Below, one piece after another: positions 42,660 to 55,149 of a DNA stretch of 64,000 nt. Below the pieces are notes generated by a model that was not told the origin of the DNA, did no database searches, and saw only the letters and a program-made list of their open reading frames with translations. A program made the position numbers and the translations under genes. This DNA is from an uncultured Azospirillaceae bacterium (GTDB lineage Bacteria > Pseudomonadota > Alphaproteobacteria > RF32 > CAG-239), in NCBI GenBank assembly GCA_964655915.1, contig CAZZNV010000001.1:10012-74011 (forward strand), read 5' to 3'. How positions within the stretch are numbered: the first letter of the stretch is position 1; each line of letters starts with the position of its first letter.

Positions 42660-42715
42660 TAAGTCGGATGTGGCGCTTGATTATTTAATTTTCAATATGT
42701 ATGATAGGGAAGAAT

Positions 42716-43438
42716 ATGAAAAAATTGACTTTGAGGATGACAAAAATGGATAGAAAGATCTTGCAAACGGTATTTTTCTTATCGGCTTTAGGGTCTGTTG
42801 CAGGGTGTTCCTGTTTTGACCGCTGGGGTGCCGGAAACACTTATGCCGAAACAGAAACCGTTACCGAGACGGTTGTCGTCCCTGCATCAGCCCCTGCGGC
42901 TCGTTCCGTTCCGGCAGAAAAGATTACGGTCGAAAACAGCGAGGATTTTATTAATTATACTCAGACAAACGCCAATTATAGAGAGTTTGGTGAGCGCACT
43001 CCGCGTGACCAGCGGGTTGTCGGAGCCGGAGCCGGCAGTAGCTTATCCGCCTCTATTCCGCCAACAATCGAAGAAGAAGTCGGTGATTATGAATCCGAGG
43101 TTAACGCAGCCATTAACGCCAGCGATGATGACGAAGATAACTCCGGCAGAAGTTACGCCGGTGATGATCCGGTTGAGGATTGGTTGGCTGAAGAAGGCAA
43201 TACTCTTAAAGGTCTGTTAACGGATTGGTGCCAACGTTCCGGCTGGCGTCTGATTTGGAACACAAATCGCAATTATACTTTATCGGCCGGAGCTATGTTT
43301 AGAGGGCGTTTTGCCGACGTGAGTTCTGCTCTTATACGCTCTTTCGCACGCGCCAGACCTGCTCCGATAGCGACATTCTATAAAGGTAACCGCGTTTTAG
43401 TTGTAGAAACGATGGAGGATGAAAATGCATACAATTAA
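42716..43438 (+). CDS. Lipoprotein, PilL/TcpQ-like candidate pilotin of type IVb pilus
   Basis: Lipobox (LSALGSVAGCSCF). Sits directly upstream of a lipoprotein secretin, as R64 pilL does before pilN. The C-terminal region (GWRLIWNTNRNYTLSAGAMF) is a weak resemblance only. Confidence 0.45.
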   Translation: MKKLTLRMTKMDRKILQTVFFLSALGSVAGCSCFDRWGAGNTYAETETVTETVVVPASAPAARSVPAEKITVENSEDFINYTQTNANYREFGERTPRDQRVVGAGAGSSLSASIPPTIEEEVGDYESEVNAAINASDDDEDNSGRSYAGDDPVEDWLAEEGNTLKGLLTDWCQRSGWRLIWNTNRNYTLSAGAMFRGRFADVSSALIRSFARARPAPIATFYKGNRVLVVETMEDENAYN

Positions 43439-45026
43439 TTGGAAAAAATTTGGCCTGGGATTATCCATGGCTGCTTTGGTTGCCTCATGTTCCATCTCAA
43501 CGCATATGGATGCCACTATTGACCGTGAAATTAAGGCCGCTACTCGATTAAAAGAGGAGGCCAAAGTTCCGACTCAGAAAGCTAATGATAACCTAATTAA
43601 GGTTAAAGATGATATTTGGCTTGGCGACACGAGTGAAATTGAGCATGAGGGAGAACCCCTTCCTTCGTATTTGGAGAGCAAAGACGGCATTACTCTTATC
43701 AGTAATCGCCCGATTACACTCTTTGAAATCGGAGACATGATTAATAAAACAACCTCTTTGGGTGTGCGTTATGCTTCACAAATGGAAGAAGATGTTAAGT
43801 CTCAGGCTTCAGAGAATCAGCCGTCGCCTCAAAATGTTAACGCAGACTGGGCCACACCGGATAAAATGCTGGTTTCTTATCAAGGACCGTTAAGCGGGCT
43901 TCTTGATGAAATTTCCTCTCGTTTTGGTGTTTGGTGGAAATATGAAAAGAAGGAAATTCACTTCTATAAATATATAACAAAGACTTTTGTTCTTTATAGT
44001 CTTCCGACCAAACCGAGTGTCAATGTTTCTGTGGGCGGAAGCCAATCCAGCGGCGGCGCAAGCTCCTCTGTTTCTCAATCAAACAGTGCTGAAGTAGAAT
44101 TGTGGGGAAATATAGAAAAGAGTATTACCTCCATGATCGGCTCCGATGCTAAGTTGACTACATCTCCTGCTGACGGAACATTGACCTTAACAGCGACACC
44201 TTCTGATATTAAGAAAGTGGCCGCCTATGTTCACGAGCAAAACATGAGATTATCTCGTCAGGTTGCCATTAGTGTGAAAATTCTGCAGGTTTCTCTAAGT
44301 GATGAAGATAAATACGGTTTGGATTTGCAAGCAACATTTAAGAATGATGTGCATAGTGTTTCTGTTGTGGGCTCGCAAGGCTTGACTACCAGTTCTCCGC
44401 TGACAAACGGTATTTCCTGGGGTGTTTTGAAAGATAAATGGACGGCAGATGCTGCTGTTCAGGCTTTATCGACACAAAACACAACAACATTGGTGACCAG
44501 CGGTACGGTGACAACAATGAACAATAAGCCCGCACCTATTCAAGTTACCACCAAAGAGAACTATATCGCTGAAATGACCAAAACAAACAGCGGCACGGAT
44601 GGAGATAACTACGACATATCCGTTACGACAGAAGAAGTTGAGTACGGCTTCACGATGGATGTTCTTCCCAGAATTTTGGAACATGGTCGTATGCTGGTTA
44701 TGTTTAACATGACATTGTCTGATTTGGTTGAGATGCAAACAGTTAACTTTGGTGCTAAAGACGACGGTCAGTACATTCAAAACCCGAAAATCGAAACACG
44801 CGGATTTAGTCAGGAAGTGGCTTTGACCTCCGGAGAATCCTTAATTTTGACGGGGTACGAAAAAGTTAAAAACGAAACAAGTAAAGAGGGTACGGGATCA
44901 GCGACCAATTCTTTGTTCGGTGGCAACGCCTCAGCCGGAAAGCAACGCAGTGTATTGGTTATTATCTTGACGCCGGTCGTTTTGGAATCACCATTGATTC
45001 CTGAGACAAGAATGTCAATGAACTAA
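43419..45026 (+). CDS. Secretin (GspD/PilQ superfamily), lipoprotein type as in type IVb systems (PilN/BfpB/TcpC-like)
   Basis: Lipobox (AALVASCS). Secretin C-terminal domain signatures (TLVTSGTVTTMNNKPAPIQV...; RSVLVIILTPVVLESP). 535 aa. Confidence 0.75.
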   Translation: MKMHTINWKKFGLGLSMAALVASCSISTHMDATIDREIKAATRLKEEAKVPTQKANDNLIKVKDDIWLGDTSEIEHEGEPLPSYLESKDGITLISNRPITLFEIGDMINKTTSLGVRYASQMEEDVKSQASENQPSPQNVNADWATPDKMLVSYQGPLSGLLDEISSRFGVWWKYEKKEIHFYKYITKTFVLYSLPTKPSVNVSVGGSQSSGGASSSVSQSNSAEVELWGNIEKSITSMIGSDAKLTTSPADGTLTLTATPSDIKKVAAYVHEQNMRLSRQVAISVKILQVSLSDEDKYGLDLQATFKNDVHSVSVVGSQGLTTSSPLTNGISWGVLKDKWTADAAVQALSTQNTTTLVTSGTVTTMNNKPAPIQVTTKENYIAEMTKTNSGTDGDNYDISVTTEEVEYGFTMDVLPRILEHGRMLVMFNMTLSDLVEMQTVNFGAKDDGQYIQNPKIETRGFSQEVALTSGESLILTGYEKVKNETSKEGTGSATNSLFGGNASAGKQRSVLVIILTPVVLESPLIPETRMSMN

Positions 45027-54088: not shown

Positions 54089-54186
54089 GTTCTCCCCCTA
54101 AGCAGTTGTTTAGCATAACTTACTTTATTATTTATTAAGATATTTGAGGTAGAGTTTGGGGAAGAGATTTATAAAGAGGTTTAAAA

Positions 54187-55149
54187 ATGGCGACAATTAC
54201 AGAAACAAAATTTTCAGATATTTACATTGCACCGGATAAAACGGCTTATATTCCGGACGGCACCACCAGTAGCGGATTGATGGAATTTCACCCTGATGAC
54301 TTTGAAGAGTTTTTTCAATTGATTGAAAAAGGCTGGCCGGGAGATAATCCCAGTTATTCAGTCATCTATCACAATATTTTTTATCGTGTGGAGCGAACGG
54401 AGGCTTTATACGGCATTCAATATTGCGCCAGAAAGATGCCCGAGCAAACACCTCCTTTTAGAACTCTTGGCTTTGGACATGAGTTGGAAACTTATATGCT
54501 GCGGCTGGCTAAAACATCGGGATTAATCTTGTGGTCCGGTCCGACCGGAGCCGGCAAAACGACTTCTATTTCGGCTTTGTTGCGTGAATATTTGCTCATG
54601 GAAGGTGGTTTTGCCTATACAATTGAAGATCCGACAGAACAACCGCTGGACGGTGTTTACAAATCTGTTACCGGCAGTCTCGGTTTGTGCAAGCAAACTA
54701 TTCCGCACAATGGTGATTGGGGCGCTTCGCTGAAATCTGCTTTGCGCTCAAAACCTCGTTTTATTTTGGTTGGTGAGATTCGTACTCCGGAAACAGCCAG
54801 CGAAGTGCTACGCGCGGCAACTTCAGGACACTTGGTTCTTTCAACCATTCACGCTAATAATGTTACTGATGCTATCAGTTCTGTTGTTAAATACGCTTCT
54901 GCTGCGAATATGTCTGAAGAATTGGCTTATGACCTGTTCTCTCGCAGTATGCTGGCCGTTTTGCACCAGACAATGACAGGAACCAGCGTTAAAAGACCTA
55001 AGACAACTTACTTGTTTGCCAACCCCAACACATCAAAAGGTGACCAAGTGCGCGGAATCATTAAAAGCGGAAAACTTAATTTGGGTACAGCTATCGAAAC
55101 GCAAATGATTCGTATGGCTCAGGGAATGCCGTTATTCACAGATGAATAA
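54187..55149 (+). CDS. PilT-family secretion/retraction ATPase
   Basis: 320 aa. Walker A (WSGPTGAGKTTSI), Asp box (AYTIEDPTEQ), Walker B/His box (ILVGEIRTPETASEVLRAATSGHLVLSTIHANN). Confidence 0.7.
   Translation: MATITETKFSDIYIAPDKTAYIPDGTTSSGLMEFHPDDFEEFFQLIEKGWPGDNPSYSVIYHNIFYRVERTEALYGIQYCARKMPEQTPPFRTLGFGHELETYMLRLAKTSGLILWSGPTGAGKTTSISALLREYLLMEGGFAYTIEDPTEQPLDGVYKSVTGSLGLCKQTIPHNGDWGASLKSALRSKPRFILVGEIRTPETASEVLRAATSGHLVLSTIHANNVTDAISSVVKYASAANMSEELAYDLFSRSMLAVLHQTMTGTSVKRPKTTYLFANPNTSKGDQVRGIIKSGKLNLGTAIETQMIRMAQGMPLFTDE

Follow-up and report, generated by a model that had tools for sequence, protein, structure and literature searches.

The region at 40944-55149 of the DNA stretch studied here quite probably encodes a chromosomal, retractile type IVb pilus (T4bP) machine of the kind of the bundle-forming pilus (BFP) of enteropathogenic Escherichia coli (EPEC), vertically inherited and not the cargo of an integrative conjugative element (ICE). 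The stretch, called the window below, comprises 64,000 nucleotides of an uncultured Azospirillaceae bacterium (contig CAZZNV010000001.1, positions 10,012 to 74,011), and all coordinates are those of the window. A previous reading of the same letters, hereafter the original prediction, had placed at 42701-55149 a thin-pilus cluster of the R64/PAPI-1 type and had connected it with an ICE integrated at a tRNA gene. The open reading frames (ORFs) on which it was based are all present with the coordinates given there, and they are far beyond chance.

Gene content of the pilus cluster

Relatives of the locus were collected through the extension ATPase of the cluster. In a species-representative genome collection (one genome per species), 335 stretches encoding such an ATPase were confirmed. 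The counts of related loci given below refer to the best 80 of these 335, in which the ATPase is 72-87% identical to that of the window. The 80 loci come from metagenome-assembled genomes titled uncultured Alphaproteobacteria, 'Proteobacteria bacterium CAG:495', 'Candidatus Scatocola' or 'uncultured Azospirillum sp.', which originate from the gut of human, deer, sheep, rabbit and chicken. 'Ca. Scatocola' is filed by NCBI under Rhodospirillaceae incertae sedis, and we take the related clade to be the GTDB order RF32, family CAG-239. The window proteins were placed on the 80 loci by tblastn, and profiles for hhalign comparisons were made from alignments of 48-81 orthologs. The reference regions were the pil region of an IncI plasmid (L081), Bosea pANAM02 (L082), the bfp region of EPEC pMAR2 (L083) and the megaplasmid of M. 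extorquens AM1 (L084). The R64-type side of the comparison thus consists of IncI plasmid pil proteins.

The features of the pilus cluster are as follows.

40944..42659, + strand: OmpA-like first gene, 571 aa, with a long variable linker between a conserved hydrophobic N-terminus and a conserved OmpA/Pal-like domain at the C-terminus
42701..43438, + strand: PilL/BfpG/TcpQ-type lipoprotein, secretin partner (Pfam TcpQ, E 2.3e-15; lipobox SVAG/C)
43419..45026, + strand: outer-membrane lipoprotein secretin of the BfpB/PilN family (Pfam Secretin; lipobox LVAS/C)
45048..46328, + strand: BfpC/PilO-type bitopic inner-membrane protein (profile of 77 orthologs; hydrophobic segment at about 186-204)
46318..47682, + strand: PilP-position protein, 454 aa, with a signal peptide, an Ala/Pro-rich linker, a long coiled coil and a C-terminal beta domain of GspC-HR/PilP fold
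47703..49364, + strand: extension ATPase (BfpD/PilQ, GspE family; Pfam T2SSE, E 2.9e-64; Walker A GPTGSGKS; CPHC...CPYC tetracysteine motif)
49384..50508, + strand: inner-membrane platform (BfpE/PilR, GspF family; Pfam T2SSF, E 1.5e-24, two stretches)
50510..51154 (ORF from 50435), + strand: pilin-fold paralog (Pfam PilS_N, E 1.6e-5; Bundlin, E 1.7e-4)
51416..52069 (ORF from 51401), + strand: major prepilin, pilS (Pfam PilS_N, E 1.8e-18; Bundlin, E 1e-14)
52091..52120, + strand: intrinsic-terminator-like hairpin, 22 nt past pilS (-17.1 kcal/mol, z -5.87)
54187..55149, + strand: BfpF-type (PilT-family) retraction ATPase (Pfam T2SSE, E 6e-30; best NCBIfam match PilT/PilU, 107.6 bits)

The genes of the span originally proposed, 42701-55149, are real, but the conserved unit starts at 40944, one gene further upstream. 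The OmpA-like fold of the product of this first gene is predicted with a confident core, and the protein is a putative peptidoglycan anchor of the pilus machine. Exact copies of it occur only on short Logan contigs, and an exact-sequence look-up with the secretin gave no match. The order of the following genes is the same as that of pilL-N-O-P-Q-R-S, so that the colinearity noted in the original prediction stands. The pil operon ends at the strong hairpin terminator after pilS, which was confirmed by folding and is not listed in the consensus promoter/terminator scan.

The type IVb class comprises the R64 thin pilus, the toxin-coregulated pilus (TCP), BFP, longus and Cof (PMC6668835). Three features of this class are present in the cluster: a class III pilin with a T4b globular domain, a GspE/PilB-type ATPase with a GspF/PilC-type platform, and a lipoprotein secretin of the PilN/BfpB/TcpC type with its TcpQ/BfpG-type partner. 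The sole match of the 42701..43438 lipoprotein in the PDB is BfpG in the BfpB-BfpG complex (9u5s_R, E 1.2e-16), and that of the secretin is BfpB of the same complex (9u5s_A, E 6e-53, residues 34-523). The extension ATPase matches BfpD best (8dze, E 1.8e-92, 314 bits, full length), followed by GspE (176 bits, E 1e-50), and the platform has a single match, the N-domain of TcpE (E 2.4e-5). As a single sequence, the BfpC/PilO-type protein has no Pfam, NCBIfam (E 0.01) or PDB match; its profile of 77 orthologs aligns with a Bosea protein annotated by NCBI as PilO2 (hhalign 99.7%). The GspC-HR/PilP fold of the 454-aa protein is predicted with a confident core. It is the fold that places this protein in the PilP position, the R64 PilP sequence itself being unmatched by hhalign and tblastn, and the protein would be expected to act as the connector to the secretin.

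The GspE, GspF and secretin families are common to type II secretion, Tad, competence and type IVb machines, and the NCBIfam GspE and PilB models are among the high scorers with the ATPase, as they might be if the cluster encoded a type II secretion system, a Tad/Flp pilus or a competence pilus. However, the scores of the GspE, PilB and ComGA models lie far under their cut-offs. The GspE, GspD and GspF models give 221, 37 and 44 bits against cut-offs of 630, 351 and 424, respectively, and the TadA-family model gives 44.8 bits against 373. Moreover, a PilN/BfpB-type secretin, its TcpQ/BfpG partner, a pilin of bundlin/PilS fold and about 206 aa, and homologs of BfpC and BfpF are present, whereas the window showed neither a Flp pilin nor a pseudopilin set, TadZ, ComEA or ComEC. 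The family assignments are thus those of a T4bP and not of Tad/Flp or type II secretion, and we regard such a machine as hardly conceivable here.

Relationship to BFP and to the R64 thin pilus

Within the type IVb class, the two systems to be compared are BFP and the R64-like thin pilus. By tblastn, the extension ATPase scores 308 bits with BfpD (35% identity over 534 aa) compared to 166 bits with IncI PilQ (29%), the platform 207 bits with BfpE compared to 115 bits with PilR (23%), and the TcpQ-domain lipoprotein 72 bits with BfpG compared to 36 with PilL. The secretin ties at 179 bits, the match extending over 544 aa for BfpB and over 389 aa, at 34% identity, for IncI PilN. Its best NCBIfam model is that of the PilN family (TIGR02520), with 270.5 bits, slightly under the NCBI equivalog threshold of 287.65. 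In the hhalign comparisons, the secretin profile aligns with BfpB at 2e-48 and with R64 PilN at 2e-40, and the TcpQ-domain lipoprotein gives 98.4% with BfpG and 79% with R64 PilL. The BfpC/PilO-type protein reaches 98.2% over 372 columns with BfpC and 95.5% over the C-terminal 200 columns with R64 PilO. The pilin reaches 98.9% over 182 columns with BfpA and 97.1% over 90 columns with R64 PilS, and by tblastn it is 40% identical to IncI PilS over 62 aa.

The PilT-like ATPase, which the original prediction had already included, does belong to the cluster: it is a full-length homolog of BfpF, and its gene abuts pilS in relatives. It is 30% identical to EPEC BfpF over 99% of its length by tblastn, and hhalign aligns the two over their full length at 99.9% (E 1.5e-37). 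Its identity to the second ATPase of the Bosea and Methylorubrum pil clusters is 32-33%. The catalytic motifs are intact both in the extension ATPase and in the BfpF-like ATPase, where they read GPTGAGKT (Walker A), ILVGEIR (Walker B-like) and STIHAN (His box).

Several genes of either reference system are missing. IncI PilM, PilV, PilI and PilP have no tblastn match in the window or in the 80 loci, and the same holds, at 1e-3, for BfpP, BfpH, BfpI, BfpJ, BfpK, BfpL and BfpU. No prepilin peptidase or transglycosylase was matched by Pfam among the window ORFs.

Every component with a detectable match is thus as close or closer to EPEC BFP than to its R64 counterpart. The secretin, ATPase and pilin do have homologs in R64 PilN, PilQ and PilS, as the original prediction supposed, but the BFP proteins are equally close or closer. 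To judge from these comparisons, the R64/PAPI-1 label is right at the class level only, the proteins compared being those of IncI/R64, and the cluster is best described as encoding a predicted T4bP machine of BFP-like kind with a reduced accessory set.

The prepilin and the pilin-fold paralog

The prepilin has an 11-aa leader, MSTLYKNEQAG, followed by RSMVEMLGVLAIIGVLS, which gives Gly at -1, Glu at +5 and a mature protein of about 206 aa, a size typical of type IVb pilins. The Glu+5 reported originally is therefore confirmed by the junction NEQAG/RSMVE, which is also the sole canonical class III prepilin motif in a six-frame translation scan of the window. The start of pilS is most likely 51416 and not 51401, since in-frame stops sit just upstream of the equivalent Met in several relatives. 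The best PDB match of the pilin is bundlin (1zwt, E 5e-8), followed by S. Typhi PilS (1q5f, 0.012) and TcpA (0.025). The class III motif is invariant in 70 pilin orthologs, and the N-terminus of the mature pilin (51449-51500, G/RSMVEMLGVLAIIGVLS, 18 residues) is essentially invariant across the clade. The globular part is 23-86% identical across the 70 loci, a strong variation of the sort expected for an exposed surface under selection.

The 'small membrane protein' of the original prediction, encoded between the platform gene and pilS, does have a membrane anchor, but it is actually a pilin-fold paralog devoid of a prepilin signal. Its ATG is placed at 50510 because the upstream part of the ORF is an alternative frame of the 3′ end of pilR. 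The protein aligns with BfpA (hhalign 95.2%) and has a single N-terminal hydrophobic anchor and no G/E prepilin motif. The N-termini of 78 orthologs are variable, hydrophobic and without a conserved G...E. Its fold and anchor suggest that it may be a membrane-tethered, minor-pilin-like component.

Chromosomal inheritance of the cluster

About 70-80 of the 80 loci share the order 571aa-L-N-O-P-Q-R-S'-S (40944-52069). By tblastn, the pil genes were matched in 70-80 loci and the gene of the 571-aa protein in 66 (72 if partial matches are included). Median identity is about 80% for the ATPase and the platform, 59-66% for PilL, PilN and PilO, and 36-45% for the 571-aa protein, the PilP-position protein and both pilin-type proteins. 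PRTase, redoxin, VWA, PP2C, kinase and NMO genes follow the cluster as in the window in about 41 loci. The identities of PilN, PilO and PilR correlate with those of the flanking PP2C, kinase and NMO proteins (Spearman rho 0.44-0.82). For PilQ and NMO the correlation is weaker and not significant (rho 0.30). Compared among themselves, the flank genes correlate to a similar degree (0.59-0.67). GC content is 0.42-0.46 across the cluster, the same as in the surroundings, with no composition break.

At up to 3 mismatches, the 3′ ends of tRNA-Arg and tRNA-Ser each occur only once in the 64-kb window, so that the att repeats suggested originally were not found there, and no long direct repeats flank the cluster within it. 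The Pfam scan for mobility genes, made on window ORFs of at least 150 aa, detected no integrase, relaxase, coupling protein or partition (ParA) gene. The sole recombinase in the window is a resolvase at 60987-61658, beyond tRNA-Ser. About 9 kb separate it from pilS, among them a 2.1-kb insertion, the BfpF-like gene and a set of six conserved chromosomal genes. As far as the window reaches, then, neither island boundaries nor mobility genes accompany the cluster, an outcome that the original prediction had itself named as speaking against it. Conserved synteny, co-divergence with the flanks, and the absence of att repeats and mobility genes from the window lead us to conclude that the pil cluster is inherited vertically with the chromosome and is not ICE cargo.

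These data bear directly on the original proposal of an R64/PAPI-1-type thin pilus, carried by an ICE inserted at tRNA-Arg and stabilising mating pairs for DNA transfer. It would account for the pilL-N-O-P-Q-R-S colinearity, for the naming of the secretin by the PilN-family model and its match to IncI PilN, for PilS_N being the best Pfam match of the pilin, and for the presence of a tRNA gene 383 nt downstream and of a type IV secretion system (T4SS) next to the cluster. Against it, BFP parts match equally well or better throughout and a BfpF homolog is present, while PilM, PilV, PilI and PilP-type sequences were not found in the window or the 80 loci. Moreover, the 64 kb contain no att repeats, integrase, relaxase or coupling protein, GC content is uniform, and the cluster shows synteny and co-divergence with chromosomal flanks in dozens of species. 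Finally, the position of tRNA-Arg is peculiar to this genome among the 81 compared. The insertion of an ICE at the tRNA gene is not borne out by these observations, and we consider a thin pilus of this kind very improbable. The notion that the whole region of T4SS and pil genes is an old ICE was also examined and rejected, since no mobility gene or boundary was seen in the window and the region co-diverges with its flanks.

Two further observations concern the chromosomal surroundings. An overlapping triad encoding a VWA protein, a PP2C phosphatase and a membrane Ser/Thr kinase occupies 56359-59244; it lies directly downstream of the pilus/BfpF-like region in about 45 species, and its VWA protein is 84-93% identical across relatives. 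At 60794-63000, tRNA-Ser(GGA) is followed by the serine recombinase (Resolvase, 60987-61658, - strand) and a gene for an outer-membrane beta-barrel protein, with GC content down to 0.356. This segment, for which no repeat of the tRNA 3′ end exists in the window, may be a small island inserted at tRNA-Ser.

The 3′ flank of pilS

In the window, two genes separate the terminator of pilS from the BfpF-like gene.

52453..52529, + strand: tRNA-Arg(CCT), predicted by ARAGORN, 383 nt past the pilS stop
52607..54088, - strand: membrane transferase of the LtaS/sulfatase family (Pfam Sulfatase, E 1.4e-20; 4-5 N-terminal transmembrane helices)

The tRNA-Arg near the cluster end and the sulfatase-family transferase had both been predicted, and both are present. 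The best PDB matches of the transferase are lipoteichoic acid synthases (E 1e-7).

A BfpF-like gene more than 50% identical to that of the window is present in 48 of the 80 loci. It follows pilS on the same strand in 42 of the 80 relatives, the gap being 116-160 bp in 18 of these. None of the 80 loci has tRNA-Arg at the position seen in the window, although nine have it elsewhere. From the adjacency of pilS and the BfpF-like gene in relatives and from the unique position of the tRNA gene, it follows that the tRNA and sulfatase genes form a local insertion of 2.1 kb. In this genome, the BfpF-like gene is transcribed separately from the pil operon. The possibility that it is part of the housekeeping flank was rejected, as it stays with pilS where the flank is inverted or replaced (L076, L050); as a further point against a mere flank gene, a second ATPase is also found in the clusters of Bosea pANAM02, an E. 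coli plasmid and EPEC pMAR2.

A sulfatase-family gene follows pilS on the minus strand in 10 of the 80 loci (L018, L029, L039, L042, L044, L046, L055, L070, L075 and L077). It lies between pilS and the BfpF-like gene in seven of them, the other three (L018, L029 and L042) being without a BfpF-like gene in the locus. Clear orthologs, at 54-55% identity, occur in two of the ten loci, and the remaining members are 29-35% identical, which suggests either that the slot has been occupied repeatedly or that the gene diverges fast. In Neisseria, PptB is a pilin phospho-form transferase that alters bundling (PMC8445170). By analogy, and speculatively, the LtaS-like transferase could modify the pilin or the envelope with phospho-forms.

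A second hairpin (52534-52563, -14.1 kcal/mol, z -4.4), flanked by an A-run and a T-run, is situated between the convergent 3′ ends of the tRNA-Arg and sulfatase genes and is probably a bidirectional terminator. Local inversions around pilS were seen in L023, L030, L050 and L076. In L076 it is the housekeeping block that is inverted, with the BfpF-like gene remaining beside pilS; the inversion in L050 comprises both pilS and the BfpF-like gene and lies next to a tRNA-Arg(CCT). The 3′ flank of pilS appears to be a recurrent rearrangement point in the clade.

The neighbouring type IV secretion system

A VirB-type T4SS lies upstream of the pilus cluster on the minus strand (10220-40555), with TrbL/VirB6-like genes at the start of the window (2-3723, plus strand). 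Its Pfam content comprises VirB11, VirB9, two VirB8, VirB4 and two or three VirB2-like genes. It also includes a 1511-aa VirB10/TrbI protein with seven 5-fold beta-flower repeats and a 1137-aa protein with beta-flower and RHS repeats. Several large ORFs in VirB6 position (22635-33277) have no Pfam match, and neither a coupling protein nor a relaxase was seen by Pfam among the ORFs of the T4SS region. The gene duplications fit the description 'rvh-like', and both they and the gene content agree with the VirB/rvh-like T4SS that the original prediction had placed beside the pil cluster. The VirB2-like genes closest to the cluster are the following.

36224-39610, - strand: VirB2-like, 1128 aa, with an N-terminus resembling VirB2; tblastn matches overlap those of VirB2 in L023 and L032
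39647-40039, - strand: VirB2-like (TrbC/VirB2 Pfam match)
40214-40555, - strand: VirB2-like (TrbC/VirB2 Pfam match)

In the 1128-aa protein, the VirB2-like N-terminus is followed by about 1000 aa of coiled-coil, low-complexity sequence rich in Gly, Ser and Asn. The VirB2 paralogs are divergent and lie 0.4-0.9 kb from the first pil gene.

T4SS genes (VirB2 paralogs, VirB4, VirB6-like) stand beside the pil cluster in 65 of the 69 loci with enough flank to be scored. This adjacency is kept in 24 of the 27 loci in which the other, housekeeping flank is rearranged or lost, and in one subclade (e.g. L007) the pil cluster has VirB6-like genes on one side and VirB2/VirB4 genes on the other. Upstream of the pil cluster of L018, the place of the T4SS is taken by a thymidine-phosphorylase-like gene. 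The pairing of pil cluster and T4SS is therefore conserved in the lineage and not obligatory.

Two interpretations of this pairing can be considered. The pilus and the T4SS could form one module, in which a retractile T4bP pulls in a bacterial, protist or host target cell for translocation of effectors or DNA by the T4SS. Such a module would correspond in function to mating assisted by a thin pilus, but with a T4SS of P-type/rvh-like kind. R64 and PAPI-1, which pair a T4bP with a T4SS, provide a precedent. The frequency of the adjacency, its persistence through rearrangement, the embedding of the pil genes among T4SS genes in one subclade and the short distance between the VirB2 paralogs and the first pil gene speak for such a module. 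However, the adjacency has been lost in four relatives that retain the pil cluster, the pil and T4SS genes are divergently transcribed with no shared regulator identified, and in a small genome that rearranges slowly, linked genes can owe their proximity to history. We hold a single module to be possible but doubtful.

Alternatively, the pilus could be a stand-alone device for adhesion or auto-aggregation, as is BFP in EPEC microcolonies, with the T4SS adjacency being inherited synteny. All matched components are BFP-like, and BFP-mediated aggregation and BfpF-dependent dispersal need no T4SS (PMC12531336). The strong variation of the globular domain of the pilin is as for an exposed adhesin, and the four relatives without a T4SS neighbour also fit. 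The fact that T4SS adjacency outlasts rearrangements points in the opposite direction, and we give a stand-alone pilus somewhat less than an even chance.

In a wider form of the module, the BFP-like pilus and this T4SS, with its duplicated VirB2, VirB6 and VirB8 and its beta-flower/RHS-decorated proteins of the VirB10 region, would constitute a conserved contact-and-delivery supermodule. We think this unlikely, but if true it would be the non-conjugative counterpart of thin-pilus-assisted mating and a clue to a life attached to other cells. In that case, phospho-form modification by the LtaS-like transferase might serve to adjust pilus bundling, in the manner of Neisseria PptB (PMC8445170).

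Proposed mechanism and points against it

The functions of the parts of BFP are taken from PMC12531336, and the assembly and retraction mechanism proposed here is inferred by homology to BFP. Cleavage of the prepilin after Gly-1 would be the task of a peptidase whose gene lies elsewhere in the genome. The hexameric ATPase of BfpD/PilQ type would polymerise the pilin at the platform of BfpE/PilR type, and the filament would exit via the BfpB/PilN-type lipoprotein secretin, bound by the BfpG/PilL/TcpQ-type lipoprotein. The BfpC/PilO-type bitopic protein and the coiled-coil PilP-fold protein may together bridge the inner-membrane motor to the secretin, and the lineage-specific OmpA-like product of the first gene probably ties the machine to peptidoglycan. 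Depolymerisation of the filament by the BfpF-type, PilT-family ATPase would provide retraction in addition to extension. The likely role of the pilus is adhesion or auto-aggregation; it would probably also draw the cell up to the surface of a partner or host that the adjacent T4SS acts upon.

Several observations weigh against this reading of the locus. The residue at +1 of the predicted mature pilin is Arg, which is unusual, since type IV pilins usually carry Phe, Met, Leu, Val or Ser at this position. The BfpF-like gene was not found within 10 kb in 32 of the 80 relatives, and in the present genome a terminator, a tRNA gene and a divergent gene stand between it and the operon. In addition, L012, L018, L027 and L029, three of which are among the closest relatives of the window, have no T4SS beside the cluster. 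Finally, no peptidase, lytic transglycosylase or class III minor pilin was found in the window or within 10 kb in the 80 relatives, and a complete machine is therefore not demonstrable from the window. The T4bP model of MacSyFinder treats the prepilin peptidase as a 'loner' that may be encoded elsewhere (PMC6668835).

Significance

Work on type IVb pili has been confined almost entirely to enteric pathogens and conjugative elements. Before the survey of PMC6668835, they had been described only in Gammaproteobacteria. The present locus would make a BFP-like, retraction-competent T4bP a core vertical trait of a widespread clade of uncultured, small-genome gut Alphaproteobacteria (CAG:495/'Ca. 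Scatocola'). The genus CAG-495 is called 'unstudied' by one paper, and our literature search on pili or secretion systems of the RF32/CAG-239 lineage found nothing relevant. The gene set gives a concrete hypothesis for how these gut bacteria attach to partners.

Comparison with known systems

TCP of V. cholerae belongs to the same T4bP class, and its TcpQ-TcpC secretin pair is homologous to BfpG-BfpB (PMC12531336). In the account of PMC5207764, TCP is described as having no retraction ATPase and as retracting via the minor pilin TcpB. The window cluster, in contrast, encodes an ATPase of BfpF type, and no class III minor pilin could be identified in it.

R64/IncI1 is likewise of the T4bP class, shares the L-N-O-P-Q-R-S order, and has a PilL-like protein that is a lipoprotein, as in the window. 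However, the window L, O, Q, R and S proteins match R64 less well than BFP, R64 has no BfpF-type retraction ATPase, and its PilV (shufflon in R64), PilM and PilI have no counterpart found in the window or the 80 loci. Nor did Pfam show, among the window ORFs, a peptidase or transglycosylase that would correspond to its PilU and PilT. R64 and PAPI-1 resemble the present locus in the physical pairing of pilus cluster and T4SS. The window T4SS, though, is VirB/rvh-like and theirs are I-type or GI-type, and the window cluster is not located on a plasmid or an ICE.

The Bosea and Methylorubrum clusters are the best plasmid matches (PilQ 37%, PilR 32%, PilO 22-26% over nearly full length). The annotated order in Bosea sp. 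pANAM02 is TcpQ, PilN, PilO2, hypothetical, ATPase, platform, second ATPase, and tblastn matches on the unannotated M. extorquens AM1 megaplasmid follow that order as well. Unlike in the window, the second ATPase follows directly after the platform, and the clusters are on replicons, the AM1 megaplasmid being typed MPF_I. No ortholog of the 571-aa OmpA-like protein or of the pilin-fold paralog was detected in them by hhalign. In unnamed BFP-like clusters on other E. coli plasmids (e.g. pJKHS016_1), too, the core genes have this order and a second ATPase is encoded. Annotated, plasmid-borne clusters of BFP-like kind with such an additional ATPase are thus already known.

The closest likeness is to BFP of EPEC. 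Homologs of BfpG, BfpB, BfpC, BfpD, BfpE, BfpA and BfpF are encoded, including the lipoprotein secretin with its TcpQ-type partner and the dedicated PilT-family ATPase, and the core order G-B-C-(U position)-D-E...F is the same. The EPEC operon, bfpA-G-B-C-U-D-E-F-P-H-I-J-K-L on the EPEC adherence factor (EAF) plasmid, differs in having the pilin gene first, whereas it is last in the window cluster. The parts are only 28-42% identical to those of BFP, and the BfpP peptidase, the BfpH transglycosylase, the BfpI/J/K minor pilins and BfpL were not found near the window cluster. No Pfam match of AraC type or PerC type, as would be expected of Per-type regulators, was seen in the window ORFs tested. 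BfpU itself was matched neither by hhalign nor by tblastn. Its slot is filled by the 454-aa coiled-coil protein with its PilP/GspC-HR domain, and the OmpA-like first gene and the signal-less pilin-fold paralog are extra to the BFP set. Finally, BFP resides on a virulence plasmid, whereas the window cluster is chromosomal, vertically inherited, alphaproteobacterial and linked to a T4SS. The core machine itself is a conventional member of the well-understood T4bP family; what sets this locus apart is its chromosomal, vertical location, its OmpA-like first gene, its coiled-coil PilP-fold connector, its signal-less pilin paralog and its conserved T4SS neighbourhood.

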